A stretch of 42,417 bases of DNA. It comes from Psammoneis japonica. Lineage: Eukaryota. Numbering within the stretch: the first letter of the stretch is position 1; every line of letters begins with the position of its first letter. Positions 6,741 to 29,413 of the stretch are shown here, one piece after another. The stretch is taken from positions 70,206-112,622 of the forward strand of contig QPGO01000222.1 of NCBI GenBank assembly GCA_008632985.1. The letters run 5' to 3'. The position numbers were made by a program, and so were the translations under genes. The notes beneath the pieces were generated by a model, which saw only the letters and a program-made list of their open reading frames with translations, had not been told where the DNA came from and searched no databases.

Positions 6741-9079
<2,339 letters not shown>

Positions 9080-9263: not shown

Positions 9264-10577
9264 CTAATCCACCTCACCGACAAGAAGAGGCCGGTACCTT
9301 TCCACACTGAAGGCTTGATGGAAATCCGCTTGCTCAGAAAATATCTGCTGTTTCTTCAAATGCGGCGACTCGTCGTTCTTGTTCTTCTTCACACGATAAT
9401 CCGCAGCCTGAATCTCAACTCCCAAGTCAGTCAAGTCTCCGGCAAATCGCACAGCACGGAAATACCCCCACAGACAACCATGATACTGTGATTTTTCCTG
9501 TTCACCGACCAGTGCGGGCGAGACAAGGGTGTTGTACCCAGGATTGTAGAAGAATGGCGAAGAATATCTACGTTTGACAGGATCGGTCCTGACACGATGA
9601 AGTGGGGCACGATAGCGCCCATTAGACCAAATCATGGCCATGTCTCCTGTATTAATTGTCAGCGCTCCCTCGACGGGTCGCACCGTGACCCAGTCTAGCT
9701 TGTCAAAATCGAACATGCTGCTATCAGCAAGACAAGGCTCGTGACGCGCCACCTGCAGTGAATGACACCCGTCATCTTGTGCCAAGACTGTAAGAAATCC
9801 GGCATCCTTGTGAGGCGAAATCCCCAAAGGAGGCAGTGAAGGTGGGGATTCCGTCTGGGGACACGGCGGGTAATAATTGATTCTCAGATAAGAGGTGTGA
9901 TTTTTCCTCATTGCCTCCAAAAAATCGCTAGCAGTTGGCTCCAAGTCGACCGATGCGATGGATTTCTCAATGGCTAACTCTTCAGGTTGCTCAAGTATTT
10001 TGTCTAAAACAAAAAGCCCCTTGGCCATTAGAGACGCAATTCGATCCGATAAGTGTGCACACGCTTCAAAGTAGTCGACAGTAACAGGCCGAAAGTCTGC
10101 CAATTCCTTCTCACTAGGAAGTTGGTTCATTCCGTCCAAGCACTCGTTGCGCTTATCATCATCCAATAAGGACCAGTCACGAGAACCTGGCACGCCTACA
10201 TCGATACACTCTTTCCAATCCCGACGCTGCTTTGTCAATTCATCGTCAAAAAAGCCTCGTGCATTGCACTCGTTACGTTTCCATTTCTTCTTCGTTTCAT
10301 ATGGTAAATCGAAATACAGCTCAGATTGCTTCCTGAACTTTTGTAAGAGAGACGGAGGGATGCCGTGATTTGTTACTTGGAAGAACCCAAAAGTACTACA
10401 GGCCGTTGCCACTTCCTTGATCAATTCCGATTCGTTTTGATTCGATAAATCAATGACTGGTACACCGTGCTCATACATGACTTCTTGGTAGGAGGGTCTG
10501 CTTTTGTTCTCGCGTTTAGTGCTGTCGCCTCCTTGGGTCGAGTCGTCAACAGTTACGGCTGCTGGCTTTAGTGTCAT
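9264..10577 (-). CDS. 2-oxoglutarate/Fe(II)-dependent dioxygenase (DIOX_N + 2OG-FeII_Oxy), about 437 aa
   Basis: VPVIDLS, ACSTFGFFQVTNHGI, LRINYYPPCP, HKD, INTGD..WSNGRYRAPLHRV and RYS. Start placed at ATG 10577; the upstream extension of the ORF is treated as an artefact. Confidence 0.92.
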   Translation of the reverse strand: MTLKPAAVTVDDSTQGGDSTKRENKSRPSYQEVMYEHGVPVIDLSNQNESELIKEVATACSTFGFFQVTNHGIPPSLLQKFRKQSELYFDLPYETKKKWKRNECNARGFFDDELTKQRRDWKECIDVGVPGSRDWSLLDDDKRNECLDGMNQLPSEKELADFRPVTVDYFEACAHLSDRIASLMAKGLFVLDKILEQPEELAIEKSIASVDLEPTASDFLEAMRKNHTSYLRINYYPPCPQTESPPSLPPLGISPHKDAGFLTVLAQDDGCHSLQVARHEPCLADSSMFDFDKLDWVTVRPVEGALTINTGDMAMIWSNGRYRAPLHRVRTDPVKRRYSSPFFYNPGYNTLVSPALVGEQEKSQYHGCLWGYFRAVRFAGDLTDLGVEIQAADYRVKKNKNDESPHLKKQQIFSEQADFHQAFSVERYRPLLVGEVD

Positions 10578-12632
10578 GTTTGCTTTGCAGCTGTCAGCTT
10601 CCAACACGTTGAACGTTGTTGCAATTGCGAACCCAGATGCTGCCACAAATAAAACACCTTGCTCGCACTGAGCACTGTTTTGGCTCACCCAACCAACACC
10701 GAGACAAAACAAAAGACTGCGAACATGCCTCCTGTCCGCTTGTCTGTCCCCGCCCGAAACACACGGCATCCCAATCTCCATCCCATCCATGGCGAAGTGC
10801 AGCGCTGTGCAGGGCAGAAGACACCCTGCCTCTTGCCTTGTGCGCCCTCTGCAAAAAGCTCCAGTGTGCGTGAAAGCACCAAGTCTGGACTGACTTGTGC
10901 TGTGCAGCACGTGATCTCTGGAAAAGCGCGACGCCCCTCCCGCCATTTTTGCCCTTCCGCCATTTTTGCCCAAGCCAAAACCAAACAGCACAAAGAGGGT
11001 CCAGCAGCACACCTTTCTTTTGTTGCTTTGTGACCAGCTTGTGCTGGGGCAGCACGCAGTCTCTGGAAAAGCATGGTGCCCTTCTCGCCATTTTTGCCTG
11101 AGCCAAGAATGAGCACAAAGGATCCAGCACCTTTCTTTTCTTGCTTTGTCCCAGCTGTCCAGCTGCTCTCCTCCCCCTCCCCTCTGTTCTTCTGCCCAAA
11201 ACAATGGGCGCTGCCCCAGCCACCCTCTTCCCCTGGCCATGCTCCCACCCAAAACAATGGGCGCAGCAGCCAGCTGGTGTGTTGCTTGGCACTGGCAGTG
11301 CTGCCATGTCAGGCTGTGTTCTTGGTTGGATGCTCCTCCACAAAAATGGAGCCTCTCACTCAGCAAGTTGTCTGGCCACCCTCTTTTTTGAAGATGCTGG
11401 TGGAAATGCATGACACGCCAATCTCCCAGGGTGCAAACAATTCTTTGGGCTTGCCATTTTGGCACAAGCTTGCCCTCAAAATCCATCAACTTTGCATCTC
11501 TGTGTCAGTTTTTTGTCTTCCTTTGGCTGCACTGCTGCTCACATTGTTGCCAGCTGCTGGCAACCCCATCCATGGTTTTTGGAGAGTCGACTCTTGTTCT
11601 GAGTCTGGGATGAAGATGTGGCATTGAAAAAAGATCTGAAAGTCAAGGGCTCAAAGCTGTGTGTAGAGAGTTGTCTCATGTCCAGAAAATGTTGTTGCTC
11701 TGACTCAGAACTGATCCATGCTTGACAAGATTGATGTGTTCTCAACAAGTGCTCCTTTGGTGTCATGGTCCAAGTGTTTTTGACAAGTGAAAACTCAAAG
11801 TGGGGAACAATGTCCAAGGAAATTTGGTCTTGCACAGTGCATGTGATCTTGACAAGACCAGTTTTGCACATGTCAGAAAGAAAGTCATTGTGGGTGGTGT
11901 TTTGTGCAGATGACAAACTGACGCTCAACGTGGAGAACACCCATGAATGAAAGAACTTTTGACTTGTCAGTTTCAGTTCTTAGAAGCAACAACAATGCAC
12001 AGTGCATCTGCAACAAATTGCTGGCACACACTTCATTTCTGACAAGAACCACACAAATTAATCTCGTTGACTTCCTTTTGCATTGGCTGTGTGCTGCTGA
12101 CAATTTGATTTGTGCACACCAAAATTTGGGTTTCCAGCAATGTCAACTTTCTCTCTTGCATGTTCTCATTCTCTGTCACCCACTCTCTTCTCTTTGCTCC
12201 ATTGTTGTTTTGGTTTGTTCCCCCATGGTCTTTTGCTGTCTGCACAGCACCCTGTCTTTCTTTGTTGTTCTGGCATTGTGTCATGTGTTTGTGCTCCATT
12301 TGGTGTCATGCTCCCACAGTTTGTCATTGAACAAGAGCCAGATTCTCTGTGTGACATTTGTCGCTTGAGTGGCACCAGAGCTTTGCCTGCCAGAAGAGAA
12401 GAGTGCATTGGAGTCATGAGTTTTGTGCACAATTGGTTTGGAAACAGTTTGGTGGTGATGATGCTTCTGCCCACCTTTGTGCAACATTGCAGCACCACGG
12501 TGTTTGCTCCAGGTGAAAGTCAAGTTGCAACAATTTGTCTGTCAAGGATGGGCAAAAGCATCAGTTTTTTGCACTGTTCTGAAAGCTGCCTGCTTCCATG
12601 GCATGTTTCCAACCTTTTGCCTTTTCTCTCTG

Positions 12633-12810
12633 CTTTTCTTTGTTTGGTTGTGCACAGTCCTTTTTTTGCTCTGCTGCTGCCTTCCCACAATGCCATCATC
12701 AACAAGATGCCCCAGGCTCTGCTTTTCTTTGTTTGGTTGTGCACAGTCCTTTTTTGGCTCTGCTGTTGCCTTCCCACAATGCCGTCATTGACAAGATGCC
12801 CCAGGCATCC
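12633..12810 (+). repeat. Tandem duplication, about 89-bp unit x2
   Basis: CTTTTCTTTGTTTGGTTGTGCACAGTCC...ACAAGATGCCCCAGGC at about 12633 and 12722. Confidence 0.85.
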
Positions 12811-13599
12811 TGTGTTTTGCATTTGTTGTGTTGTGTGGTGGCAATGATGTGTTTTTTAGCATGATGCTGAGCCAGTCAGCCTGATGGTCATTTTTGGTTG
12901 TTTTTGCAATTGCAAATTGTTCAAACCAACTGGAACATGAATGATTTGTTTGGTCTCAACCTCCAGCTGTCAACTTCATTTGAGCGATGTCGCTTCTTTT
13001 TGAGCTGGATGTTGAAATTGTTTGGGTTAGATGCAGTGTGCATGATGTGTTTGCAGAAGATTGATGTTTGATTTTCTGCCAGTGTGATCTTTGTTGGCTC
13101 TTGTCAAGAACAAATTTTCACATTTGTGCTGGTCCGCAGAGAGCTTGTTTGTTTCTGTCTGTGAGAGTGCCTCTGCAGCTGGCTGATCTTTGCAACAACC
13201 AATCTACACCCACACAGCAACCTTTGTTTTGGCTGCATTTTCATCATGGTTCAAACTCACAGGCAGGAGGTCAGAAGAGGCCATGGAGCCAGTTTTGTGC
13301 AGGTGGCATCAGACCTTTGCAAACAAAGGGGATCATGGAGCTGCTCAATTGGTGCCTTGATTGCTCTGCTGTGGCACTCACAGCAGTGCTGCCTTCAAAG
13401 AGCCACTGCACCAGCCTCCAGAGACAGCATTTCCTGTGCCAATGTTCTTCCTCCTTGCTGACATGTGGTTCCCCATGCCAATGCTGCAGTGTGCTGTTGC
13501 TGCAGCTGCACATCATCTTGCAGCTGTCAGCAACAACAGACTTAAGAAAGCAACTCTCAACTTCATGATGACACTGCAAATGATGGCCACTGCCAGTGC

Positions 13600-14480
13600 C
13601 CAACAACAGCAAACTGAGGGCACTGTTGGTGTCTGGTGGTCCCCAGGAAACTCTTTGAGAGCTGTGGTTGAACATTGCAAGGTTGAATTTTGTGGCATTG
13701 TGGCCTCATGTCACCTTCTTTCCAACAGCAGTGAACTTGGATTTCCAAAGTCAAAATTGAAAAGACCCCATGATGGTGCCAGCCAACCCAGCAACAGCAA
13801 GCTGAGAGTGCCGGGAGTCTGTGGTGACCCCCACAGCTGACGCTGTAGAAGCAGCTGCTGAGTGTTGTGAGGTTGATGTTGTGGCTGAATGCAACCTTTT
13901 CCCCAACAGCAGTGGTGCACCATTCTTTGAATTTTCAAACTCTGAGTCCCAAGTGAAAGGACCCTGTGATGCCACCAACCAACCCAACAACAGCAAGCTG
14001 AGGGCACTGAGAGCCCTGGCAGCCCCCCCCAGCAATGCTTTGAGAACCACAGTTGAGAGTTCCAAGGTTGATCCAATGGTGTTGTTTCCCCATGACATGT
14101 TGTCCCCAACAGCAGCAGCTGACTTTTGAACCTCCAAAATCCAGAGTGAAAGGACACCATGGTGCTGCCAACCAACCCAACAACAGCAAGCTGAGGGCAT
14201 TGGTTGTCCTTTCACTGGCACCCTTGGCATTTGGAAAAGTTCCAGCAGTCAGGGCTGTCATTGCGAACAAGGTGCAAGACATGGAGCCACAACACCCCAT
14301 GAGATCAACTTTGCAGTGCCAAACCACAGCTCACAAAGTGTCACCTGGGCCCCACCAGAAACTGAAAATGCCCTTGGTTTTCTGTTGTTGGGTTGGTTGG
14401 CCACATTGTGGGGTCTTTTTATTTTGGAGTTTGGGGGCTCCTCAAGTCTGCTGCTGTTGGGGACAAGGTGACAGGGGGGC
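13600..14480. repeat. Degenerate ~190-bp repeat units, the last one inverted (about 14230-14480)
   Basis: Recurrent TTTGAGAG...TGCAAGGTTGA...GTCACCTTGTCCCCAACAGCAGCAGACTTGA. The reverse complement TCAAGTCTGCTGCTGTTGGGGACAAGGTGAC is at about 14442-14471. Confidence 0.75.
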
Positions 14481-14499
14481 ACAACAACATCATGTCTGC

Positions 14500-17400
14500 A
14501 CTGTCTCCCCCTCCAATGGGCTCTGTTCTGAGGGAACCCAAAACCTGGAGCTGCGCTGCCTCCCTTTGGTGGGTTCCAGCCAGAGGGAACCCAAAAGCTG
14601 GAGCTGTGCTGTCTCCCTTTGATGGGCTCCCATCTGAGGGAACCCAAAACCTGGAGCAGCACTGTCTCCCTTTGATGGGCTCCCTTCTGAGGGAACCCAA
14701 ACCCTGAAGCTGTGCTGTCTCTCATCAACAGGCTCCCATCTGAAGGAACCCAAAACCCGGGAGGGAGAACCCAAAACCTGAAGCTGGGCTGTCTCTTTTT
14801 AATGGGTCCCTGCCAGAGGGAACCCAAAACCTGCAGCTGCAATGTCTCCCTTTGATGGGCTCCCATCTGAAAAACCCAAAACCTGGCAGGGAACCCAAAA
14901 CCTGGAGCTGCGCTGTCTCTTTTTGATGGGTCCCCACCAGAGGAAACCCAAAAAACCTGCAGCTGCATGGTCTCCCTTTGACAGGTTCCCATCTGAGAGA
15001 GCCCAAATCCTGGAAGAGTGCTTTGTTTCCCTTTGATGGGCTCCCATCTCAGGGAACCCAAAACCTGGTGCTGTGCTGTCTCCCTTTGATGGGTTCCTGT
15101 CAGTGGGAGCCCAAAACATGGAGCTGCGCTGTCTCCCTTTCATGGGTTCCCACATGAGGGGAAACCAAAATCTGGGGCTGAGCTGCACAACTTTGATGGG
15201 TTCCCATCTGAGGGAACCCAAACCCTGGAGCTGCGCTGTCTCTTGTTGACAGGCTCCCATCTGAGGGAACCCAAAACCTGGAGGGAACCCAAAACCTGAA
15301 GCAGTGCTGTCTCTTTTTAATGGGTTCCCATCAGAGGGAACTCAAAACCTGGAGCTGTGCTGTCTCCCTTCAATGGGTTCCTCCTGTCTGAGGGAACAGG
15401 GGAAAGAGGGAGCTGTGCTGTCTCCCTTCAATGGGTTCTCCATTCTGAGGGAACCCAAAACCTGAAAGTGCTTTGTCTCCCTTCAATGGGTTTGGTTCTG
15501 AGGGAACCCGATGCCTGGAGATGTGCTGTCTCCCTTTGATGGGCTCCCACCATTTGAGGGAACCCAAAACCTGGTTGTGCCTTGTCTCCCTTCAATGGGT
15601 TCCCATCTCAGGGAACCCAATGCCTGGTGCCACACTGTCTCCCTTTGATGGGTTCCTGTCTGAGGGAGCCCAAAACATGGAGCTGAGCTGTCTCCCTTTC
15701 ATGGGTTTTCATCTGAAGGGAAACCAAAACCTGGGGCTGTGCTGTGCCACTTCAATGGGCTCCCGTCTGAGGGAACCCAAAACCTGGAGCTGTGCTGTCT
15801 CTCTGTTTGATGGGCTCCCATCTGAGGGAACCCAAAACCTGGAGGCAGGGAACCCAAAACCTGAAACTGCGCTGTCTCCTTTTGATGGGTTCCCATCTGA
15901 GGGAAGCCAAAATGTGGGGCTCTGATGATTTTTAACGGGCACCTGTCTGAGGGAATGTCAAGGTGTTCCTGTCTGAGGGAGTGTCAAACATGGAGCTGCA
16001 CTGTCTCCCTTTGCTTTGTTCTGCTCTGATGGAACCCAAAACCTGGAAGTGCTTTGCCTCCCTCGAGCGGGTTCTTTTCTGAAGGAACCTTGAACCTGGA
16101 GCTGCACTGTCTCCCTTTGACAGGTTCCCATCTGAGGGAACCCAAAACCTGGAAGTGCCTTGTCTGCCTTCAATGGGTTTCCATCTGAGGGAACCCAAAA
16201 CCTGCAGCTGTGCTGTCTCCCCACAATGGGCCCCATTCCAAGGGAACCCCAAACCTGGAGCTGTGCTGTCTCCCTTTGACAGGTGCCCACATGAGGGAAC
16301 CCAAAATCTGGAGCAGCACTGTCTCCTTTTGATGGGCTCCCTTCTGAGGGAATCCAAAACCTGGAGCTGTGCTGTCTCCCTTCAATGAGCTCCTGTCTGA
16401 GGGAACCCAAAACCCAGAGCAGTGCAGTCTCCCTTTGATGGGTTCCTGTCTGAGGGAACCCAAAACCTGGAGTGACACTGTCTCCCTTCAGTGGCTTCTG
16501 TTTTGAGGGAACCCAAAACCTGGAAGTGCCGTGTCTCCCTCCAGTGGGTTCTCATCTCAGGGAACCCAAAACCTGGAGCTGCACTGTCTCCCTTTGATGG
16601 GTTCCCATCTGAGGGAACCCAAAACACAGAGCAGTGCTGTCTCTCCTAAATGGGTTCATGTCTGAGGGAGCTGAAAACACAGAGCTGCACTGTCTCCCTT
16701 TGCTGGGCTTGGTTCTGCAGGAAATCAAAACCAGGAGCTGTGCTGCATCCCTTCAATGGGCGCCCTTCTGAGAGTCCAAAACCTGGAGCTGCACTCTCTG
16801 GAACAGCCTTGACTTCCTTTCATGACAGTGCCTGCCCACCTGACAAGAACAGCAAGCTGAGGCCACTGGCAGACTCTGTCAAGTCCCAAGCAACACTTTG
16901 AGAGCACAGCTGGGTGTTGCAATGTTGATCTCACAGTGTTGTGGCACCATGTCACCTTGTCCCCAACAGCAGCAGACTTGAGCTTCCAAACTCTAGAGTG
17001 CAGAGATCCCATGGCAGTGTTGCCTGGACCAAGAACATCTGCCAGCACCAAAGGGCACTGGCGGTGTTTGGTTCACCCAGAGGAGTGAGACTTCAAGAGC
17101 TTTTGTGGGTCATTGCAAGGTTGATCTTGTGGCACTGTGCCCCAGGGCACCCTGTCCCCAACAGCAAAAGACTTGACTTTTCCAAATCCAAAGTGCAACA
17201 AATCCACTGGCGCTGTCTCCCTTCAATGGGTTGTGTCGTGAGGGAACCCCCAAAACCCAGAGCTGTGCTGTCTCACTTTGATGGGTGCCCATCTGATGGA
17301 ACCCAAAACCTGGAGCTGTGCTGTCTCCCTTCAATGGGTTCCCATCTGAGAAAAAAAACCTGGTGCTGTGCTGTCTCCCTTTGACAATGCACATTGTCCC

Positions 17401-18280
17401 CAACAGCAGCAGACTTGACTTTTCCAAATCAAAAGTGCAACGAATCTGTTGGCACTGTCTCCCTTCCATGGGTTCTGTTTTGAGGGAACCCAAAACCTGG
17501 TGGTGCACTGTCTCCTTTGATGGGTTCCCATCTGAGGGAACCCAAAACCTGGAAGTGCCTTGTCTCCCTTCAATGGGTTCCCATCTCAAGGAACCCAAAA
17601 CCTGGAGCTGCACTGTCTCCCCATCACAATGGGCTCCATTCTAAGGGAGCCCAAAACCTGGAGCTGTGCTGTCTCACTTTGATGGGTGCCCATCTGAGAG
17701 AACCCAAAATCTGGAGCAGCACTCTCTCCCTTTGATGGGCTCCCTTCTGAGGGAACCCAAAACCTGGAGAAAACCCAAAACCTGAAGCTGTGCTGTCTCC
17801 TTTTGATGGGTTCCCATCTGAGAAAATCCAAAATCTGGAGCTGTCCTGTCTCCCTTTAATGCTGGGTTCCTGTCTGAGGGAACCCAAAACCTGAAGCTGT
17901 GCTGTCTCCTTTTGATGGGTTCCCATCTGAGAGAATCCAAAACCTGGAGCTGTCCTGTCTCCCTTTTGTGGGTTCTGTTTTGAGGGAACCCAAAACCTGG
18001 AAGTGTCATGTCTCTCCCCAATGGGTTCTTGTCTCAGAGAACCCAAAATCTGGAGCTGTGCTGTCTTCTTTTGATGGGTTCCCAACTGAGAGCACCCAAA
18101 ACATGGAGCGATGCTGTCTCTCCTAAATGGGCTCACATCCAAGGGAGCTGAAAATGTTGAGCTAAACTGCCTCTCTTCAATGGGTCTTGTTCTGTGGGAA
18201 CTCAAAACCAGGAGCTGCATTGCATCCCTTCAATGGGCTCCCTTCTGAGATGGCCCAAAACCTGAAGCTGCGCTGTCTGG
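14500..18280 (+). repeat. 53-bp minisatellite, roughly 60 degenerate units, interrupted by 190-bp units at about 16800-17200
   Basis: Consensus CTGTCTCCCTTTGATGGGTTCCCATCTGAGGGAACCCAAAACCTGGAGCTGTG. GAGGGAACCC recurs at 14530, 14583 and 14636 (period 53). Confidence 0.95.
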
Positions 18281-18289
18281 GGAACAGTC

Positions 18290-19190
18290 TTGACTCCCTT
18301 TCATGACAATGCCAACCCGCCAGACAAGAACAGCAAGCTGAGGCCACTGGCAGACTTTGGCAAGTCCCAAGCAACACTTTGAGAGCATGGCTGGGTGTTG
18401 CAACATTGATCTCATGGTGTTGTGGCCCCATGTCACCTTGGCCCCAACAGCAGCAGACTTGAGCTTCCAAACTCTAGAGTGCAGAGATCCCATGGCAGTG
18501 CCAACTGGCCCAACATCTGCCAGCAATGGGCACTGGTGGTGTGTGGTGCAACCAGAGTGAGACTTTTCAAGAGCTTTTTTGGGGCACTGCAAAGTTGATC
18601 TTGTGGCACTGTGCCCCAGGGCACATTGTCCCTGACAGCAGCAGACTGGACTTTTTCAAATCCAAAGTGCAGTGAATCCACTGTGGTGCCAACCAGTTTG
18701 ACAACTGCCAGCAAAAAACATTGGTGGTGTCTTTGTTGAACCCCAGGTGAGACTTTGAGAGTGGTTGTTGGGCATTGCAAGGTTGACCTTGGTTTGCTGT
18801 GACAGTGTGTCACCTTGGGCCCAACAGGAGCAGACTTGAACTTCCAAGCTCCAAAGTGAAAGGATCCCCCTTGGTGGTGACAACCAACATTGCAGCTGCA
18901 AGTGGAGAACATTGGCGGTCTTTGATGGACCCCAGGTGACAGTTTGAGAACTGTGGCTGAGCATTGTGAGGTTTGTCTTTTGACATTGTGGCCCCATGTG
19001 TCACCCTGTTCCCAACAGCAGCAGACTTGAGTTGGGCTGAGCTTCCAAACTTCAGAGCACATGGATCCCATGGTGGTGCCAACCAACACAACAACTGCCG
19101 CCAGAGGGTGCTGGTGGTGCTTGGTGGACCCAGGGCAAAACTTCAAGAACTTCTGTTGGTCATTGCAAGGTTGATGTCATGGCAAGAATT
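18290..19190 (+). repeat. Degenerate ~190-bp tandem repeat, about 5 units (same family as 13600-14480 and 16800-17200)
   Basis: Anchor motif recurs at about 18378, 18566, 18753, 18943 and 19141. Confidence 0.8.
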
Positions 19191-20287
19191 GAAATGATCC
19201 TGTCTTTCAATCCAGCGGGGCTGGACAAAACCAAGACCACATGAGCCATGTCTGTGCCACAGCTCCTTGACTTTTTGCATCCATTCTCAAGCAGAGTCAG
19301 AGCTGGCATGTTTTGCTGTGGCTGCTGACCAAATCTTGGGTGGAGAACAGGGCATGATGCATTGCTCCTGGTCCTTTTGATGATGACAGCAGAGATCTGG
19401 CTGAGTTGAAAGCAGACTCAGATTCAGACATGGAAGCCAAGCATCAGATTTTTTGCAATCAAGAGACTCTGCTGCATTGGGAGGTGAAAGAGGTGACATG
19501 GAAAGCTGAGGAAGTTCCAGGCAACAAAGCTGATGACTCAACCAAATGAAACAATGTGATGCACATCAAACACCATGTTGGAGTTGAAAGCTGGAAAGCA
19601 CAAGGATCTGTTGAGTGCATTGGTCAAACAAATGGGGTGAAGGCTTTGCAAGACATGGGCGCAAGGCAAACCTAAAAAATGTGGTTGCATGGCTTGAGGA
19701 GTCTGCCCCACACCTCTGGACCACACCTTGCACCAAACAAGGAACAACAACTGAAGGTTTGTGTTCACCAGTGCTGCTTTTCACATTGTCACACTGCACA
19801 GACCTTGCGCCCAGCTGGTTGCACCACACCCTGATTCTGCAAATGTGGATTTTTCACTTGGACTTGCTGTTGGAACATTTGGCACCAATGCTGCCACAGG
19901 GATTGCCAGAAGGTTAAAAACCTTGGCCATGTCACCAGTGTGTGCCCACTGGGAAGGTGCTTTTGTGAGTGGTGGGGAAATCCAAGGCTTGCACTGCTGT
20001 GCTGGATCTGATGTGGGCCTCCCACAACACACCAGCCAGATTGTGTCACAAAATCCTGGGCGGCAAAGCAAGGCTTCTTTCAGACAATGAGTTCAACAAA
20101 AGCGGAGCAAACTTGGAGGATTGCCAGGCAAACTGATTTGTGCAGTGCAGCTGAGAACAGTTCAATCAGCATTGGTGCCCAATTTGAGCAAGAGAGTCAG
20201 CAAGCACACAACAATGTCAAGTCAAAGTTGTTCTTGTTGGCAGGAGGGCGGCATGCTGAGGGGCACAACTGCCACAGATGCACAAGC

Positions 20288-20563
20288 TGACAGAAAATGA
20301 AGGCAAATGGCAAGAATTCAAACAACAACTCCTTGCTGCTGTCTAAATGGCAGATGAGTCTCCGCTCAGAGACCGTTGCAGGAGCCGAAAGACGTGTGGG
20401 TCGGCACAATCGGGCTACTGTTGTCATTCTTGTGAGCCTTGTGGCTCGAAAGCAAACTACATCGCGCGCGAACGCGCGGAACTAAAGCACACAAAACTGT
20501 GCGCGGTAAACTAAACAGCGCGCGATGCTTTGCGCGCATCCAAATCCTGTTCAAATCCTGTCA
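20288..20563 (-). repeat. 3' LTR (276 bp), hypermutated copy
   Basis: Aligns with 27120-27403 with 9 substitutions and one 8-bp indel. Confidence 0.96.
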
Positions 20564-23500
20564 CTCCCCAGTTTGCTTGAGGAGCCACAGAAACAGATTC
20601 GACTTCGGATGGAATGAAGTTCCAGAACATGAGGGGGCGGAGAAGGTCCCAGATTTGGGAGTGACCCCAATGCTTGCTGAGAATGTCAGCAGGGTTGCGG
20701 GAGCCTTCGATGAAGTGGAACTCAAGGCAACCAGAGGCAATTGCCTCACGCACACGGTGGAACGACAGTGCGGTGTGTCGCTTGTGTAACTTGGAGTGCG
20801 GGATGGTGGCACTGTCTACAACCGACTTGTTGTCACCGAACATGTAACTGACATTACGGATCGGGACGCCAAGGTGGCGCAGGGTGATGCGCAGGTCGAC
20901 AATCTGCTCAACACAATTCCTTGCGGCAACAAATTCAGACCCGCAGGTTGCAGTCTCCACGGTGGCTTGTTTCTTGGAGAACCAATCAGCCGGGAATTTG
21001 TTGAGGAAGTGGAGCATTCCCATGACAGAGCGTCCGGTGAGCATGCAATGGTGCAAGTTTGCATCGACGCAGTGGGTGGCAGTGACGAACTTGCCAAGGG
21101 GCGGTGGAGCGTCCTTCGGGATCATCTCTTCTGCTTCACCACACACGGAATGCATCCATTCACAGGCCGGAGCAGGGAGATCCGAATGGTCGGGCTCTTC
21201 CGTGCGAACGCGGAGAGCACCGTGTCGCATCTTGGAGAGGTGCCCACAGACGCGTTTGGCACGATCCAAGTGGCCTTGACGGGGCGCAGCTCGGAAGCTA
21301 GAGAGTGACATGACGGCCGTGGTAATGTCAATTCGACCAAGGGACACTGCCCATTGGAGTGAACCAACAAGAGACTGGAACTTGTGAATGCCATCGGGTC
21401 CCAGCAGTTCGGAAGTGTCCAGTTCGGGGTGGTCACCCTTCTCTAGAGGTGACAGGGCGTTGGTGGCAGGTTTCTCCCCAAACAGTCGGGCGCAGCTGTC
21501 GACCATGCGCTCGATGTACTTGCGCGGAGACAGGCACAAGGTTCCGTCGGGGTCCCGGGAAAAGTCGCAACCCAGATGGAACTCAATGGGTCCCGTGCCC
21601 TTGAGCTTGAACTTGTGCTTTTCCGTGAGAGTGTCGACGAAAGGTTGAGGGTCCTTCATGGCAATGGCGAGGTCATCCACATAAACGGCAATGTATTCAC
21701 AGTGGTCGCCGTTCCTGCGCATCCAAATGTCGGGTTCGGCGCGGCAGGGGAAGAAGCCTTCAGCTCGCAGGCAGTCGGCGAAGCGTTCGTGCCAGCGGAG
21801 ACCGGAGCTGCGCAGTCCATACAGTGCCTTGTGGATGACAAGGATGTGTCCTTCGAGTTTGCCAAATTCGGGTCCAGCTACAATGTAAAGCTTCTCCTTG
21901 GTGGTGGCCTCAAGGTGGGCATTGCCAATGTCGGTGGCCCATGTCTCCAGCTCGTTGAGTTCGGCCAGGAAAATCATCAGCCGAAGGCCACGAAGGGAGA
22001 CCACTCCGGAGCAGACACTGTCGACAGGTACGTCCGTGAGGTGCCCGTCGGCTACGAGTCGTGCCTTGTGGCGACCGTCGTGTTTCACGTGGTACACCAG
22101 GTGCACTCGGATCTTCTTGTGTCCCGCAGGAGGAGTGGAAGACTTGAAGGGCCCGCAGTCATGGAAGACTTCGTATTCGTCGAGTTGGTCCATCTCGAGA
22201 TTAGTTGCGTCTCCCCACTTGCGGTTGCCGTTGCGTTCGTCTAGTGACATGGCGTGTTTGTAGTTCCGGGGAACTTCGTATCCGCACTTGCAGCGAGGTG
22301 CAGTGCGGAAGGAACGAAGCTTGGCTTGGTTGGCCATGCGAAATAGTTTCTTTTGGCGCCTCGCGACAGTGCGGAACCGCTTCCAGCCATCCGTGTCGAG
22401 GAGTCCGTTCTCTCGTGCATAGATGGCACAGGTGACGGGGTCGTCCTTGGCGATGATGGCAAGAGGCTCGGACGTGATCTCCCCACTTTCCCATTCAAGC
22501 ATGATGTTGTAGCTTGAGCCTTTCCAGGTTGGGTCGTGAGGCTTCAGAGGTCCTTCGTGTGACACGATGCGTCGAAATTTCCAAACAGTGGTGTCTTCGT
22601 CTTCTTGCTCAATGTGATTCATGATGTCATTGTAGGCAAGGACTTCCTCGCATTCGTCATTGTTGACAGAGCAGACGAACTTAGTGAGCTCGGGATTGCC
22701 GTTCACTTTCCATTCGTGGTCTTCGACGGCCTTGACGATGCGAGCTCTGTGGCGTTGACCGTCCTCTTGTGGCTGCATGAGGAAGGTACGTCCAATGATG
22801 TCTTGCGGATCGAAAACTGGCATCTTGGGTGTCCTGATCTCCCCATCAGGAGAATCGACGGGGTTGTCGTCATGGCGAGATTTGATGATGGGTTCAGGTG
22901 GCTCCCCATCAGGAGGATCAAGACGCAGGTTTCGAACAGCAGGATCGGGGGCAGCGGAGCGAACGTTGGACCGGCAGAGGATCTTTTGAGTCTCGTCAGA
23001 TAGGATCTTGAAGGTCATCTGGTGGCCGACGTGCTCAGCAATGCCAACGAAGCGTCCGCGCAACTCACGGGATTCGGACGGCCAATCGGAGTCATCGAGG
23101 TGGAAGTACACTGGTTCCCACCAGTGAAAGCGAAGCAATGGGCTGATGTCCGGGGTGGATCCAGTGAGAGTCTCGAGGGGCGTGCGCCAGTGGAGACGTG
23201 GGGACGCTGTGTGGTTGAGTGTGAAGCACACGCACATGAGCGCCAGCAGCCATGTGTGGGCGGGCGAACCAAAACGGTCCATGACAGTGTTCGCCATGCG
23301 CTTCACGGTCTGGCAGCGACGCTCGGCAAAGTTTTGGTGTTGCTGGTGAGGCTCACTTTGCCAGCTGGAGATGAAGAGGGCGCGCAGGATCCCGAGCACT
23401 TTGTTGCTGATCTCAACTTGAGCACGGTCGCTAATGAGTTTGGATGGGGCACCACGTTCACGGATCTGATCCTCGAGTGTGTTGACAAACTCTTTGTCCG

Positions 23501-26180
23501 TCTCAGTGCCGTAGATGTCAGTGACGGTAGACTCGGTGCCAACAAACAGTTGGGCGCTGGTGCAACCAGAGTCGACGGCCGGGGTGTCGGCACGAACGGT
23601 GTCAGTGGCGACAGGCTCGTTGCGGCGGTGCACATTAAGGGCGGGGTTGGGTGATTTGCAGGCCTTGCGAAGGTGTGCACCGGCGGGCATGCGGGCGCAC
23701 TGCGTGGTGCAGTCAAAAGTACGACGGACCGTATCGGCAGGTGGGAAGCCAAAGCAAGGCCGAAGAGACTCGAAGGGGGGGTCCTTGGGCTGTACAGTGC
23801 GCTCCGGAGGTGGAACGTCATCGCCCTTGGGGTCAATCGCATGCATGTGACACTCGTAGAACACGTCGTCGTTCGGAATGAGGTGATCATCGAGGGCGGA
23901 CGCGTGATCGGCAGACAAGGAAGCGGACAAGATGGTCTCGTTGACAACGACACGGTGGCGGCAGTTGCCGCATTTGTCAAACAGGTTGGCAGTGGGATCG
24001 TCCTGTCGGTCAGAGATCGCGTCGCACCACTGGTCGTCGTCAGTGACAGAGTGATCGAGGACGGAAGGGTCCCATGTGTCATCACCGGTGAGGATGACAT
24101 GGGGCAGGGTGTCCCATTCGGCGTCAGTGTAAGGTCGCATGGCAACATGAGGCAGGCCAGCCTTGATGTCAATGGGGATGACACAGCCATCAGGAGTGGC
24201 AACACGTTGCAAGCCGTTGGGCACCTTGACAGAGCGATCGTTGACATCCTGTTTGCACCATTCGAGCTGGCCGCAGGAATGGATGGTCTTGCCCTTTCCC
24301 GTGCAAGCGCACTGATGGAGGATGGCGATGACGGGACCACGCTGGGTCTCAATGACGGCACCAGCGGTGACAATGGGGATGTCCACCAATTGATGATCGT
24401 CAATGCCCTGAACGTCGACTTGGCGAGAGGTGCGTGCGATGACGCGGACGTCGTCGCCAGCAATGCCGCCGTTGGCCCCACGATCGACTAGAGCGCCAGT
24501 GCGTGTGGAGCGATGAGCAGAGGCAGAGTAAATGACATTGTGGTTGTCAACGCGGCGGCAAGTGCGGCCGTTAAGTTCGATGTCATCTGCAGAAGCTGGC
24601 GGGGTAGAGGAAGCGGCGGATGGCCCCGGTCGACTGGCATTGGGGGCTTGGTTAGGAGACAACAGACGTTGCAGATCACCGGGTGGCAGTGGCTTGCGCT
24701 TGGTGAGGTGCGCCAGGACAGGATTGTCCGAAATGGCATCCACATGTGCAGCGGAGTCACCACAGTCAGCAGGAGTCGTGTTGGACAAGTTGACATCACC
24801 GTCACTCCCAAGGTGTTGGTCGTGAAGGTTGGCCGTAACAGACTCATGGCAGTCACTGGCTCGCGGAGTGCGGGGAGGCGGACGAGAGTGCTCAAGGATG
24901 ATCGCCTTGGAGGAATCGGGCAACGAATCCCAGAGCCGTTGGTGGTCGGGAGGGAGACATCTCCATTGGACACCGGCGAGGCTGGGACCACGGGTGTCGG
25001 CAGCATTGGCTTGAAGGACGTCAACGTCACTGTCAATGTCGTAGAACACATCGTCGGACGGTTCCTCGGAGCAGACGTCGTGTGCGCATGTGGCGCGTCG
25101 GGGAGCTCGAGGTGTCGTCTTGGGTTGAAACGTGCTGTCGCACTGAGCTGCCGCGGAGAGGAGCAAGCCACAGCATTGATCATGTGTGAGGCTCTTGCCA
25201 CTCTGCGTGCGATGCTGATCAGCTTGGTTCTTGACAGCACGGAGTTCCTCGACAGGGTGCACGGCATTCTCGAGCATGACGCGCTTCTGTCCTTCAGAGA
25301 AGTGGTCGCTGGCGGGGATGAGTGCCTCGCACTTGCGCAACTGATCTTGCCAATGAAGGATGAACCCGTGGGTCGGACCTTTCCAAGTGCCATCACCAAG
25401 ATGTGCGGTGGTGAGGCACGTGAGCAGGGTGGAGGACTCGACAGATGCACGGGTGGAGGCAAGCGCGCATTCAGACAAGGAGCGGCAGACGGTCTGTGCG
25501 TCAGAGGACCCCACATTTTCGCGAATGAGAGCCTTGCCCTTGTCGGTGAGAAGGATGCGTTCGAAGACGGCGAACATGTGCTTTTGCTGTTCAGCAAAGA
25601 GCAGTTTGTCTTCGGGGCTGGTCGGTTTGTACGACGAGTCTAGAATGCACTCGACGTCTTGGGCACGGGCTTGTGCCACAAGTGAGGTGTGCCAAGTGTG
25701 CCACTGCTTGTCGGATTTGAGAGCCGTGAAAGCGGTGGGATCACGCTTGATGCCTCGCTTGAAGTCTCGCACCGGGTCGCGTGCCTTGGTCGGGTTGGTG
25801 ACATGTGGAGGTGCAAGGGGTGAGCTGCCGATGGACAGAGAGGACATGTGGTCCGGGCTGAGGCGGCAGGCAAGGAACTCGTCATGCGTGAACAAAGAGG
25901 AGTCGTTGGCAACGTCAAGACCTTTGTGTGCTTTGACAATGTACAGGCTGGCCAGTGCTGCTAACATGTTCTTATAACCACGGGGCAAAGGGATTGCATT
26001 GGTGCCGTTGTCGCACTCAAGCGAGTCGATTTGGGACGGTGTGAACGTGAACAGTTCCTGATGCGAGTCCGTGCCGTCTTGGGCCAAAGCCAAACGAAGA
26101 GGACTCCCAGCACCTTGGGCAAGCACGGTTCCAACAACGTGCTCGAAACCATCGGTTTGTTGCTGACGAGTGAGAACCAT
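20511..26180 (-). CDS. Copia gag-pol polyprotein; open frame but probably inactivated by Tyr>Cys/His changes
   Basis: Protease LVDRGAN; integrase VATD..ISD..AER; RT HKARLVA, KALYGL and YVDD; RNase H VDAN, SEFVAA, GDN and ADILSK. Integrase precedes RT, the Copia order. Confidence 0.95.
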   Translation of the reverse strand: MVLTRQQQTDGFEHVVGTVLAQGAGSPLRLALAQDGTDSHQELFTFTPSQIDSLECDNGTNAIPLPRGYKNMLAALASLYIVKAHKGLDVANDSSLFTHDEFLACRLSPDHMSSLSIGSSPLAPPHVTNPTKARDPVRDFKRGIKRDPTAFTALKSDKQWHTWHTSLVAQARAQDVECILDSSYKPTSPEDKLLFAEQQKHMFAVFERILLTDKGKALIRENVGSSDAQTVCRSLSECALASTRASVESSTLLTCLTTAHLGDGTWKGPTHGFILHWQDQLRKCEALIPASDHFSEGQKRVMLENAVHPVEELRAVKNQADQHRTQSGKSLTHDQCCGLLLSAAAQCDSTFQPKTTPRAPRRATCAHDVCSEEPSDDVFYDIDSDVDVLQANAADTRGPSLAGVQWRCLPPDHQRLWDSLPDSSKAIILEHSRPPPRTPRASDCHESVTANLHDQHLGSDGDVNLSNTTPADCGDSAAHVDAISDNPVLAHLTKRKPLPPGDLQRLLSPNQAPNASRPGPSAASSTPPASADDIELNGRTCRRVDNHNVIYSASAHRSTRTGALVDRGANGGIAGDDVRVIARTSRQVDVQGIDDHQLVDIPIVTAGAVIETQRGPVIAILHQCACTGKGKTIHSCGQLEWCKQDVNDRSVKVPNGLQRVATPDGCVIPIDIKAGLPHVAMRPYTDAEWDTLPHVILTGDDTWDPSVLDHSVTDDDQWCDAISDRQDDPTANLFDKCGNCRHRVVVNETILSASLSADHASALDDHLIPNDDVFYECHMHAIDPKGDDVPPPERTVQPKDPPFESLRPCFGFPPADTVRRTFDCTTQCARMPAGAHLRKACKSPNPALNVHRRNEPVATDTVRADTPAVDSGCTSAQLFVGTESTVTDIYGTETDKEFVNTLEDQIRERGAPSKLISDRAQVEISNKVLGILRALFISSWQSEPHQQHQNFAERRCQTVKRMANTVMDRFGSPAHTWLLALMCVCFTLNHTASPRLHWRTPLETLTGSTPDISPLLRFHWWEPVYFHLDDSDWPSESRELRGRFVGIAEHVGHQMTFKILSDETQKILCRSNVRSAAPDPAVRNLRLDPPDGEPPEPIIKSRHDDNPVDSPDGEIRTPKMPVFDPQDIIGRTFLMQPQEDGQRHRARIVKAVEDHEWKVNGNPELTKFVCSVNNDECEEVLAYNDIMNHIEQEDEDTTVWKFRRIVSHEGPLKPHDPTWKGSSYNIMLEWESGEITSEPLAIIAKDDPVTCAIYARENGLLDTDGWKRFRTVARRQKKLFRMANQAKLRSFRTAPRCKCGYEVPRNYKHAMSLDERNGNRKWGDATNLEMDQLDEYEVFHDCGPFKSSTPPAGHKKIRVHLVYHVKHDGRHKARLVADGHLTDVPVDSVCSGVVSLRGLRLMIFLAELNELETWATDIGNAHLEATTKEKLYIVAGPEFGKLEGHILVIHKALYGLRSSGLRWHERFADCLRAEGFFPCRAEPDIWMRRNGDHCEYIAVYVDDLAIAMKDPQPFVDTLTEKHKFKLKGTGPIEFHLGCDFSRDPDGTLCLSPRKYIERMVDSCARLFGEKPATNALSPLEKGDHPELDTSELLGPDGIHKFQSLVGSLQWAVSLGRIDITTAVMSLSSFRAAPRQGHLDRAKRVCGHLSKMRHGALRVRTEEPDHSDLPAPACEWMHSVCGEAEEMIPKDAPPPLGKFVTATHCVDANLHHCMLTGRSVMGMLHFLNKFPADWFSKKQATVETATCGSEFVAARNCVEQIVDLRITLRHLGVPIRNVSYMFGDNKSVVDSATIPHSKLHKRHTALSFHRVREAIASGCLEFHFIEGSRNPADILSKHWGHSQIWDLLRPLMFWNFIPSEVESVSVAPQANWGVTGFEQDLDARKASRAV

Positions 26181-27104: not shown

Positions 27105-27119
27105 GCAAGACTGTTAATC
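27105..27119 (-). promoter_or_regulatory. Putative primer-binding site complementary to the anticodon arm of tRNA-Asn(GUU)
   Basis: Immediately inside the 5' LTR the sense strand reads GATTAACAGTCTTGC. Its complement GCAAGACTGTTAATC contains the tRNA-Asn anticodon loop CTGTTAA. Confidence 0.6.
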
Positions 27120-27403
27120 TGACAGAAAATGAAGGCAAATGGCAAGAATTCAAACAATAACTCCTTACTGCTGTCTAAATAGCAGATGAGTCTCCGCTCA
27201 GAGACCGTTACAGGAGCCGAAAGACGTGTGGGTCGGTATAATCGGGCTAGGGCCCTACTGTTATTATTCTTGTGAGCCTTGTGGCTCGAAAGCAAACTAC
27301 ATCGCGCGCGAACGCGCGGAACTAAAGCACACAAAACTGTGCGCGGTAAACTAAACAGCGCGCGATACTTTGCGCGCATCCAAATCCTGTTCAAATCCTG
27401 TCA
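27120..27403 (-). repeat. 5' LTR (284 bp), TpA-retaining copy
   Basis: Direct repeat of 20288-20563; carries an extra 8 bp forming TAGGGCCCTA at 27248-27257. Confidence 0.96.
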
Positions 27404-28273: not shown

Positions 28274-28308
<35 letters not shown>

Positions 28309-29300: not shown

Positions 29301-29413
29301 AAGTTACCTCGACATGCACCACCGCGTAACAAACAAAAGAAAAGAACCCACAAAAAATGCCTCTGTCTCTCAAACAAAGCATGGCAAAAGAAAATAGAAC
29401 GTCCAAGCGTGTG

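Follow-up and report, generated by a model that had tools for sequence, protein, structure and literature searches.

A TpA-free block of repeat DNA in a diatom genome points to local hypermutation of TpA to TpG and CpA

Results

What lies at this locus? The stretch analysed here, henceforth the window, comprises 42,417 nucleotides of Psammoneis japonica and is diatom nuclear DNA; the best named matches of its PRP43 helicase (7640-9079) are from diatoms, at 83-88% identity. An intact 2OG-Fe(II) oxygenase gene on the reverse strand (9264-10577), normal in both TA and CG content, marks the sharp left border of a TA-free domain, D1 (10570-20287; observed/expected ratio, O/E, of TA 0.04), which is CpG-poor from about 11000 on. 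D1 ends at a copia retrotransposon, likewise on the reverse strand (20288-27403), whose LTRs have the ends TGACAG...CTGTCA and which is bracketed by a CAAGC target-site duplication (left copy 20283-20287, right copy 27404-27408). Its polyprotein frame (RVT_2; 20511-26180, reverse strand) is open from an ATG at 26180 and runs uninterrupted through 1889 codons. Past the element, DNA free of TA and CG resumes as D2 (27404 to approximately 29300). With the duplication on both sides of the element and TA/CG-free DNA on both flanks, D1 and D2 are a single block that was split by the copia insertion. The window edge (1-1500) is a further TA-poor block, with a TA O/E of about 0.2 and normal CpG. The 42 frames of D1 and D2 gave no convincing Pfam match; the window's two 2OG-Fe(II) oxygenase genes match DIOX_N / 2OG-FeII_Oxy.

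Between 10580 and 20287 there are 22 TA dinucleotides where 588.3 are expected (O/E 0.04) and 66 CG where 622.9 are expected (0.11), while TG (1137; O/E 1.82) and CA (887; 1.51) are in excess. The preliminary description of this DNA had put the count at about 20 TpA in 9.7 kb against several hundred expected, which is borne out. Shuffling the mononucleotides 1000 times gave a mean TA count of 588 (sd 18) and never fewer than 531, and a mean CG count of 624 with a minimum of 571. The depletion is regional: TA O/E is 0.01-0.22 inside the affected DNA, with borders at about 1500, 10570, 26500 and 29300, against 0.63-0.66 outside, in flanking genic DNA whose CG O/E is 1.0; across D1 and D2, CG O/E is 0.07-0.18.

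The two depletions do not begin together. The last ordinary TA, at 10569, lies 8 nt within the adjoining gene. In the shoulder that follows the gene start (10580-11000) a single TA is left, at 10650, where 21.7 are expected, but CpG is retained (20 against 29.7), so that the left border of CpG loss lies about 400 nt inside that of TA. The domain had been described as lacking both dinucleotides from 10580 to 20287; its TA-free start at about 10570-10580 stands, whereas CpG loss begins only at about 10960-11050, and the right end has to be revised, as the domain continues beyond copia from 27404 to about 29300. There, between 27405 and 29150, 1 TA is found against 121.7 expected and 17 CG against 97.2; the next TA is at 29305, and on this side both depletions share one border at about 29290-29305.

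Much of D1 is repetitive. Arrays of a 53-bp satellite, about 60 units in all, occupy 14400-18330 and are broken at 16844-17210 by a repeat of about 195 bp, which also recurs at 18325-19180; the first array of this second repeat, with units of about 190-200 bp and 67-75% identity between copies, lies at 13600-14400. The section from 11000 to 13600, non-satellite and without TA and CG, contains an 89-bp unit repeated twice (12628-12806), is otherwise without a match in the window, and harbours no recognisable coding remnant. As had been predicted, the depletion persists in non-satellite DNA, with 5 TA against 136.5 expected and 11 CG against 95.2 at 11300-13200, and with 2 TA against 69.1 and 6 CG against 65.0 in the unique right end of D1 (19200-20287, or 19200-20280). 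Thus, satellite composition is not the cause.

In which direction did the sequence change? The copia polyprotein, matched to metagenome relatives at 696 of 778 conserved columns, carries 12 Tyr, 14 Cys and 7 His at the 37 columns in which these relatives conserve tyrosine; judged against 120 protein homologues, the figures at 46 such columns are 15, 17 and 9. Cys and His together thus fill 21 of the 37 columns (26 of the 46 under the second reference), against 0-2 in 45 of 47 comparison loci. Among the metagenome copia loci, TA O/E is 0.5-1.0 in 48 of 51, and three share the signature: L014 (TA O/E 0.31; 11 Tyr, 9 Cys, 5 His), L032 (0.27; 1, 8 and 10) and L035 (0.13; 2, 9 and 6). Neither the remaining loci nor any of the 120 best protein homologues show it, so that it is not a general trait of the relatives. 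In the satellite, the ancestral TA site reads TA in 5 units, TG in 29 and CA in 19, and the ancestral CG site reads CG in 6, TG in 24-26 and CA in 15-16, each site being resolved unit by unit and independently; the proposal that TA and CG converge on the same two products is thereby upheld. The Tyr-to-Cys/His changes at conserved columns, the split of satellite sites into TG and CA, and an LTR pair that differs only at TA (see below) confirm that TA is the ancestral state and was lost by transition to TG or CA.

This polarity bears on the notion that no mutation process acted at all, the DNA being TA-poor by origin or selection, or that a process of reverse polarity resembling fungal RIP turned CA/TG into TA in the spared parts. 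TA is indeed under-represented in most genomes, including the host genes here (O/E 0.63-0.66). However, an O/E of 0.04 is far beyond the shuffle range, the element's relatives largely have ordinary TA contents, the residues that took the place of conserved tyrosines belong to precisely the two codon families that TA loss yields, and a process running from CA to TA cannot make TG and CA alternate at one site, as they do among satellite units and family copies. We regard this explanation as scarcely credible. RIP itself, which makes TpA by C-to-T change at CpA, was rejected as a candidate, the polarity in Tyr columns and satellite sites being reversed.

The copia element dates the process. It has a TA O/E of 0.22 and a CG O/E of 0.94; as about 70% of its TA is gone while its CpGs are untouched, the process was still active after the insertion. 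The 3' LTR (20288-20563, reverse strand) differs from the 5' LTR (27120-27403) by nine substitutions, every one of them at a TA of the right-hand, 5' copy that has become TG or CA (chance 2e-9), and retains six TA. Changed alignable sites thus number 9 of 15 for TA, 0 of 21 for CpG and 0 of about 246 for other positions, from which the site counts of this one pair give an indirect bound of more than 75-fold over background on the TA rate. The changes, five to TG and four to CA, hit both strands and are scattered over the whole LTR length. The mutator therefore acted on the integrated copia, after its insertion into the block. One feature is not predicted by a simple domain model: a stretch at 26501-27403 (reverse strand), comprising the first 600 nt or so of the leader and the 5' LTR, is spared (57 TA against 58.6 expected, 61 CG against 53.3), with mutated DNA on both sides.

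The same comparison weighs on RNA editing, in which ADAR- or ADAT-like A-to-I changes in retrotransposon transcripts would have been fixed through reverse transcription. ADAR and ADAT enzymes typically edit an A that follows a U (Mettrop et al., 2026, bioRxiv 10.64898/2026.01.13.699255), and the young target is a retrotransposon. However, changes made before integration predict LTRs that agree, whereas those of this single insertion differ at nine TA sites along their whole length. Both strands were struck, in the LTR as in the reading frame (14 Cys and 7 His), tandem satellite units that do not retrotranspose were altered unit by unit, and unique non-coding DNA is affected up to the gene start. 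RNA editing is thus very improbable.

The few TA dinucleotides that survive in D1 are not a random sample. The preliminary description had reported that most are YTAR and had named seven examples (11981, 13543, 16646, 16994, 18124, 19673 and 19915), all of which we verified; the class accounts for 17 of 22 survivors (TTAA 7, CTAA/TTAG 8, CTAG 2) against 3.3 expected from the NTAN background of the window (binomial p 4e-10). The excess persists when survivors in a common satellite column or duplicated segment are merged (p at most 1e-6) and when the null model lets survivors arise anew from TG/CA (p 9e-6). With increasing depletion, the YTAR share of surviving TA climbs from 16% in the relatives over 24-27% and 39-50% to 77%, while the RTAY share drops from 36% to 0%; in the block at 1-1500 it is YTAR in 7 of 18. 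In the LTR pair, seven of nine changes lie at TAY on the mutated strand, as had been stated, corresponding to 7 of 14 TAY strands against 2 of 16 TAR strands (p = 0.046). The survivors and, separately, the LTR pair both put the preference for TAY over TAR at about 5-fold. Of the earlier proposal that 5'-TAY is the preferred substrate, the preference thus holds, but YTAR sites are slowed only, not exempt; of the 53 satellite units with TA, TG or CA at the TTTAAT site, 48 are mutated there.

Product asymmetry in end-state DNA (243:115 and 149:84, against a background of 893:763) agrees with a preference for a 3' pyrimidine; it is at background level in the copia body (275:265) and does not reach significance in 1-1500 or in the satellite. 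Nor is the flank rule visible on the antisense strand of Tyr codons, where 3 of 15 TAY and 4 of 18 TAR opportunities were changed. Within TAY, the LTR pair reveals no preference for C over T at +1, with 4 of 7 TAC and 3 of 7 TAT strands changed.

CpG decay had been described as superimposed on the older DNA, and the LTR pair (CpG 0 of 21, TA 9 of 15) and the copia O/E values (CG 0.94, TA 0.22) agree: the evidence supports a separate, slower and older layer than the loss of TA. As diatoms methylate transposons (PMC9998398), this layer is most likely due to deamination of 5-methylcytosine, a process which likewise turns CG into TG/CA, as inside the old block, but which accounts only for the CG half and here runs at a far lower rate than the loss of TA. 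The alternative is one dual-specificity enzyme that removes TA and CG alike, such as a deaminase of ADAT2 type that attacks both A and C in DNA. It is suggested by the common products and the common right-hand border at about 29290-29305, and ADAT2 enzymes have been reported to act on A and C in DNA, according to work cited in a preprint (Mettrop et al., 2026). Against it stand the uncoupled kinetics just given, the 420-nt shoulder without TA that retains its CpG, and the metagenome relatives, in which TA-only loss occurs at three loci and CG-only loss (O/E at most 0.3) at eight, with both together at none. We consider a single enzyme improbable and retain two layers.

Could the depletion reside in the assembly only? 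Long-read assemblies are subject to methylation-linked A-to-G and C-to-T consensus errors, so that modified bases of heterochromatin might have been read wrongly, G for A and T for C, in DNA that truly keeps its TA and CG; strand-specific miscalls at palindromic TA and CG would also give TG or CA. In a sequencing run (X1) whose 31-mer contigs reach 315 kb and whose unique DNA has a depth of about 67-107, we found 88% of the sampled 31-mers from 9300-13400 and a 1720-nt contig of depth 67 that matches 19150-20313 with 0 substitutions, although this run, of unrecorded platform, may be the window's own assembly source. Summed depth is 50,000-360,000 for the copia family, compared with about 70-107 for unique DNA, and by the run's tally its read variants comprise 127 transitions and 19 transversions; among the 40 of 147 variants listed, nearly all fall on TA, TG, CA or CG dinucleotides, including TG/CA alternates at one site. 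The Tyr-to-Cys/His signature appears in three contigs of other metagenome projects as well, and comparable mutations in Bigelowiella natans arose in Illumina-sequenced lines (Mettrop et al., 2026). We therefore give an artefact very little credence.

Discussion

What process can account for this DNA? With a probability of roughly 85%, we favour in-situ, domain-restricted, DNA-level hypermutation of TpA to TpG/CpA in repeat DNA under silencing, overlaid by a slower decay of CpG. In such a scenario, an old repeat block (10570-20287 and 27404 to about 29300) would have reached the end point of a local process by which TpA on either strand undergoes A:T-to-G:C change. The mutator would work on integrated DNA, halt sharply at neighbouring genes and proceed about five times faster at 5'-TAY, such that YTAR sites would vanish last, while a much slower second process would have stripped CpGs from older DNA, likewise giving TG and CA. 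The data above show the polarity, the specificity for TA, action in situ on both strands, sharp borders, the influence of the flanking base and the distinctness from CpG decay. We infer that this is an enzyme-driven defence against silenced or selfish DNA; the copia element qualifies as a selfish target (RVT_2), and D1 and D2 are composed of satellites and unique DNA.

As to the chemistry, we put first, at about even odds, an adenine deamination that leaves hypoxanthine in DNA. A T 5' to the target A is required and a 3' pyrimidine is favoured, both features of TadA/ADAT2-type deaminases. Bacterial TadA reads UAC(G), and early DNA adenine base editors preferred YAC. TadA, ADAT2-3 and the TadA-derived base editors thus resemble the present process in A-to-I conversion next to a 5' U or T and in a context akin to 5'-TAY, but the lack of a preference for C over T at +1 (TAC 4/7, TAT 3/7) sets them apart, and we know of no natural TadA/ADAT member established as a mutator of chromatin domains. 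The likeness to the TA(C) preference of TadA-type deaminases, drawn in the preliminary description, is not supported in that form. Since TAY on the A strand is RTA on the T strand, thymine-directed chemistry fits the sequence equally well: every TAY event would be an RTA event on the opposite strand, and JBP/TET-like oxidation of T in 5'-RTA to a base such as 5-formyluracil, which mispairs with G, would yield T-to-C changes. Base J and 5-hydroxymethyluracil are placed preferentially at T before A in kinetoplastids and dinoflagellates. However, no thymine hydroxylase is, to our knowledge, responsible for heritable transitions on such a scale, and the window's two 2OG-Fe(II) oxygenases belong to DIOX_N / 2OG-FeII_Oxy families, which we take to be distinct from JBP/TET. 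Thymine oxidation is thus unlikely, if the most serious rival to adenine deamination.

The closest known parallel is found in mutation-accumulation lines of Bigelowiella natans, where A-to-G and T-to-C changes confined to TpA, at about 1000-fold background, strike integrated viral DNA, and whose genome holds TpA-depleted, CpA- and TpG-enriched clusters rich in reverse transcriptase and DDE domains (Mettrop et al., 2026). Both cases share the confinement to TpA, products on either strand and locality; a rate far above background and an aim at non-host DNA would be common to both as well, the copia element being such a target here. The host there is a chlorarachniophyte, a rhizarian, and here a diatom, a stramenopile; the targets here comprise satellites, old DNA of no recognisable origin and an LTR retrotransposon family present in very many copies. 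Here we also see an end state (TA O/E 0.01-0.04), a flank rule (TAY about 5-fold over TAR) and a separate CpG-decay layer; the preprint reports a de novo rate from cell lines, against the LTR-pair bound of more than 75-fold. Its main text does not contain the words 'context', 'flanking', 'trinucleotide', 'CpG' or 'diatom', and our literature search retrieved no report of TpA hypermutation in diatoms. The comparison points to a local DNA-editing defence of a kind so far reported in just one other alga.

The RIP of ascomycetes is likewise a defence that places dinucleotide-context transitions in repeated or selfish DNA, with sharp borders and skewed dinucleotide ratios. However, RIP makes TpA from CpA/TpG by C-to-T change, lowers GC and creates stop codons, whereas here TpA is destroyed by A:T-to-G:C change, GC rises and stop codons cannot be created, so that the copia frame of 1889 codons stays open; besides repeats, DNA that is unique (11000-13600 and D2) has been affected. 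In animals, APOBEC and ADAR hypermutate retroelements by deamination as a form of immunity, acting on reverse-transcription intermediates or RNA and leaving G-to-A changes (APOBEC) or strand-biased A-to-G clusters. The present process differs in that it affects integrated DNA on both strands, satellites included, and we are not aware of APOBEC or ADAR retroelement editing in diatoms.

What would such a process mean for diatoms? We tentatively propose, as a possibility that is somewhat less likely than its converse, that diatoms possess a natural DNA editor for A:T-to-G:C change that is active, is guided by chromatin and prefers 5'-TAY. It would mirror fungal RIP, silencing retrotransposons without introducing stop codons, and, as a trait shared with chlorarachniophytes, would date far back in the SAR supergroup. 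The effector might be an uncharacterised stramenopile deaminase, for example a deaminase-SAM-Tudor protein; such proteins were reportedly noted among the uncharacterised stramenopile deaminases by Iyer and co-workers in 2011. To the main text of the preprint, the window adds the end state, a dated before-and-after comparison in the LTR pair and the separation from CpG decay, and the flanking-base rule is a constraint that any candidate enzyme must reproduce. A natural enzyme for A:T-to-G:C conversion in double-stranded chromosomal DNA would also be of interest to base-editing research. As TA-free DNA lacks TAA and TAG stops, long false reading frames arise and crippled transposon copies appear intact, misleading gene callers and estimates of transposon age in such genomes. 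If true, the editor proposal would provide the first natural DNA adenine deaminase serving genome defence. If the hypermutation reading as such holds, TpA-directed hypermutation would extend beyond one chlorarachniophyte to the genome defence of ecologically dominant algae.

Results

The block between 10580 and 20287 holds 22 TpA and 66 CpG, against 588 and 623 predicted from its composition, with TG and CA raised to 1.82 and 1.51 times expectation, and the lowest counts among 1000 shuffles of the same DNA were 531 TA and 571 CG. The preliminary description, which had put TpA at about 20 where several hundred are expected, was thus accurate in this respect. In 500-nt steps the depleted state is uniform throughout and its edges are sharp. 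It also persists outside the satellite, as that description had asked to see: 11300-13200 has 5 TA (136.5 expected) and 11 CG (95.2 expected), and 19200-20280 has 2 TA (69.1 expected) and 6 CG (65.0 expected). Unique DNA makes up 10580-13600, apart from an 89-bp unit repeated twice at 12628-12806, and 19200-20287; between these stretches lie 53-bp satellite arrays (14400-18330, interrupted at 16844-17210) and arrays of a ~195-bp repeat (13600-14400, 16844-17210 and 18325-19180). A second block, from 27404 to ~29300, is in the same state, with 1 TA (121.7 expected) and 17 CG (97.2 expected) in 27405-29150. It contains a perfect (TTG)12 microsatellite at 28274-28309; one might speculate that this derives from a (TTA)n ancestor, whose T-TA-T sites would yield TG under the flanking-base rule described below.

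At the left edge of the larger block, TA loss comes as close as ~10 nt to the start codon (ATG at 10577) of an oxygenase gene, the last ordinary TA being at 10569, and CpG loss starts only at ~10960-11050. Upstream of this gene, the 420-nt TA-free shoulder has a single remaining TA, at 10650. It sits in AATAAA (TTTATT on the gene strand), 73 nt upstream of the ATG, and does not belong to the Y-TA-R type (YTAR); selection may have preserved it as a TATA-like element. A further block at the window edge, 1-1500, has a TA observed-to-expected ratio (O/E) of ~0.2 with normal CG; Pfam returned no hit for it, and it resembles neither the copia element nor the remaining window. Coding remnants were sought in 42 of the 53 stop-to-stop frames that reach 90 aa or more in 10580-14450, 18300-20287, 27405-29300 and 1-1600, none of which had a Pfam hit above the curated cut-off, and tblastx of the same four regions against 51 metagenome loci related to the copia element returned nothing.

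The two blocks are separated by a Ty1/copia retrotransposon (RVT_2) on the minus strand, with LTRs at 20288-20563 and 27120-27403 (ends TGACAG...CTGTCA) and the pentamer CAAGC duplicated on both sides. This arrangement implies that the blocks were once one, and that the element inserted into DNA already devoid of TA and CG. From 20288 to ~26500 the element itself has a TA O/E of 0.22 and a CG O/E of 0.94; damaged as it is, it retains an open frame of 1889 codons. The two LTRs of one element are identical at integration. Here they differ by one 8-bp indel and nine substitutions, all nine of which oppose TA in the right (5') LTR to TG (5) or CA (4) in the left (3') LTR; the probability of all nine falling on TA nucleotides by chance is 2e-9. 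Changes thus affect 9 of 15 alignable TA sites, none of 21 CpG and none of ~246 other positions, so that TA sites mutate more than 75 times as fast as all others. One part of the element, 26501-27403, is spared: its 5' LTR and, next to it, the leader's first ~600 nt keep 57 TA (58.6 expected) and normal CpG, even though mutated DNA lies on both sides, in the element's remainder and in the second block, and the step at ~26500 is sharp. This would fit an active promoter under protection, or subsequent gene conversion by an unmutated copy.

A RIP-like change of CA and TG to TA in the spared parts would give an identical LTR alignment, and polarity was therefore established from relatives. The copy in the window agrees with the metagenome loci at 696 of the 778 columns conserved among them. 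Their 37 conserved Tyr columns are occupied in this copy by Tyr in 12 cases, Cys (TGY) in 14, His (CAY) in 7, Phe in 3 and Arg in 1; of 46 Tyr columns defined by 120 protein homologues, 15 retain Tyr, 17 have Cys and 9 have His. The sum of Cys and His at such columns is 0-2 in 45 of 47 comparison loci and 4-5 in two divergent ones. The satellite provides a second line of evidence, with one TA site now read as TA in 5 units, TG in 29, CA in 19 and CG in none, and one CG site as CG in 6, TG in 24-26, CA in 15-16 and TA in none, a pattern showing that each site was resolved independently, unit by unit, once the array existed. Together, the Tyr columns and the satellite sites rule out the reversed polarity and bear out the direction originally proposed, TA to TG or CA: TA was lost, not gained. 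The loss took place in integrated DNA, on both strands.

The sequence state is most unlikely to be an artefact. In a public read run (X1), whose longest contig of 315 kb attests to the accuracy of the reads, the 31-mer contigs contain 88% of sampled words of 9300-13400, and a 1720-nt contig of depth 67 equals 19150-20313 without substitution and with one extra A. These data exclude an assembly slip; they are not fully independent, X1 possibly being the source of the assembly, and its platform is not on record. Among the runs listed as containing these words, none was of RNA. Independent support comes from three metagenome contigs with the same Tyr signature, L014 (11 Tyr, 9 Cys, 5 His), L032 (1, 8, 10) and L035 (2, 9, 6), whose TA O/E values are 0.31, 0.27 and 0.13, and from bioRxiv 10.64898/2026.01.13.699255, where mutations of this type were seen to appear in lines sequenced by Illumina. 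Among the best 120 protein hits, none has five or more Cys and His at the Tyr columns and none bears a diatom species name. Within X1 the copia family reaches a summed depth of 50,000-360,000, against ~70-107 for unique DNA, and its variants were tallied as 127 transitions and 19 transversions. Nearly all of the 40 variants listed, out of 147 rows, lie on TA, TG, CA or CG dinucleotides, and at several of these sites the window copy has TG where other copies have CA, some sites showing TA, TG and CA; most copies of the family are thus affected, each differently.

Which TA sites survive depends on the flanking bases. As the preliminary description had noticed, most survivors in the larger block are YTAR (17 of 22, against 3.3 expected; p = 4e-10), an excess that holds when shared satellite or duplicated sites are collapsed (p <=1e-6) and if the survivors are taken as new TAs arisen from TG or CA (p = 9e-6). 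The YTAR share climbs with depletion, from 16% in unmutated relatives through 24-27% in L014 and the window copia and 39-50% in 1-1500 (7 of 18 survivors), L035 and L032 to 77% in the larger block, and the RTAY share drops from 36% to 0%. In the LTR pair, 7 of 14 strands reading TAY were changed, against 2 of 16 reading TAR (p = 0.046). Under a TAY rule, the expected product is R-CA-R for R-TA-R and Y-TG-Y for Y-TA-Y. Against a background of 893:763, predicted exceed opposite products by 243:115 in the end-state DNA of 10580-13600 (p = 1e-6) and by 149:84 in the second block (p = 0.004); the asymmetry is not significant in 1-1500 (86:64) or the satellite (195:133) and absent from the copia body (275:265, not significant). 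In reads of the copia family, a C-TA-C site shows ~66% TG and 19% CA and a G-TA-G site ~80% CA with no more than 7% TG, percentages that assume co-occurrence of the two listed changes; both of the asymmetric sites with both changes among those listed obey the rule. First-order TAY/TAR ratios are ~5 from survivors and 5.2 from the LTRs. The proposed 5'-TAY substrate therefore stands as a roughly fivefold preference, but not as an exclusion: the satellite's TTTAAT site is of the YTAR type, and yet it has mutated in 48 units out of the 53 with TA, TG or CA at that position. The signal of the preference is missing in the copia body. Within TAY, C is not favoured over T (4/7 and 3/7 strands in the LTR pair), and antisense changes in Tyr codons (TAY 3/15, TAR 4/18) are uninformative for the +1 position. 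A rule requiring W at -1, obeyed by 9 of 9 changes in the LTR pair, was dropped, C or G preceding the site in 13 of 14 Tyr-to-Cys events.

CpG decay and TA loss arise separately in nature. Among the 51 metagenome copia loci, three have lost TA only, eight CG only (O/E <=0.3) and none both: seven of the CG-only loci (L007, L025, L034 and L046-L049) have CG O/E of 0.13-0.30 with normal TA (0.52-0.85), and the TA-poor L014, L032 and L035 retain CG at 0.74-0.80. These loci, the contrast of CG and TA within the window copia, the LTR counts and the offset of the left borders (~11000 versus ~10570) make CpG decay a separate, slower layer, which marks older DNA, in agreement with the superposition first suggested.

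The genes beside the depleted DNA are ordinary and compact, with TA O/E of 0.63-0.66 and CG O/E of 1.0. The closest named relatives of a PRP43/DHX15 helicase (7640-9079) are diatom proteins (Fragilaria, Ditylum, Pseudo-nitzschia, Nitzschia; 83-88% identity), and nearby are two 2OG-Fe(II) oxygenase genes and one cyclophilin gene. Intergenic, upstream of the first oxygenase gene, are short tandem arrays rich in TTCGAA palindromes (2403-2464 and 3026-3100, units of 9-21 bp), whose alternating GAA/TTC pattern resembles heat-shock elements. A segment is duplicated ~7.3 kb apart (31145-31860 and 38479-39216, 86-94% identity), each copy holding a 48-bp unit repeated twice and one lying inside a 994-aa minus-strand frame (31168-34152) that matches no Pfam family. 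A 147-bp tandem repeat at 36895-37242 (2.4 copies, 98% identity) lies in ordinary DNA without TA depletion.

Discussion

What can be said about the process behind these blocks? The sequence evidence shows a TpA-specific A:T-to-G:C transition process that works in situ, on both strands and within restricted domains, at least ~75-fold above background, and that continued to act once the copia had inserted; in older DNA it overlaps with a slower decay of CG to TG or CA. We infer an enzyme-driven defence against silenced or selfish DNA. Our first choice for the chemistry would be adenine deamination in 5'-TAY, giving hypoxanthine, with replication fixing G; modification of thymine in 5'-RTA on the opposite strand would lead to the same sequence outcome. 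The likeness to TadA-type deaminases drawn in the preliminary description would be a tentative analogy. Candidate effectors may include ADAT2/3 and the uncharacterized stramenopile deaminases listed by Iyer et al. 2011 (PMC3239186), namely deaminase-SAM-Tudor and Rossmann-fused CDA-like proteins.

Full-text literature searches yielded no diatom case of TpA hypermutation. Work on diatom DNA-methyltransferases (PMC9998398) describes transposon control that depends on 5mC, and DNMT4 genes related to RID, and hypermutation is not reported in the sections consulted. Fungal RIP is a functional analogue, although of opposite polarity. One close precedent exists in the main text of bioRxiv 10.64898/2026.01.13.699255, which followed mutation-accumulation lines of a chlorarachniophyte, Bigelowiella natans. 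Two viral regions integrated in its genome acquire mutations at ~1000 times the rate of the remaining genome, and almost all of these are A-to-G or T-to-C changes on TpA. Across the genome, clusters poor in TpA show an enrichment of reverse-transcriptase and DDE domains, and an ADAT2 homologue is put forward as effector. The words 'context', 'flanking', 'trinucleotide', 'CpG' and 'diatom' are absent from that main text.

The polarity of the change has a consequence for annotation. As TpA turns into TpG or CpA, no stop codon can arise and TAA and TAG are destroyed, so that TA-free DNA carries long spurious reading frames on both strands, a hazard for gene callers; at 9264-11489, a 741-aa frame joins the real oxygenase gene to upstream non-coding DNA. 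The window is classed here as a diatom case, in retrotransposon and satellite DNA, of a kind of system so far described in this one 2026 preprint alone, to which it adds the end state and the flanking rule.
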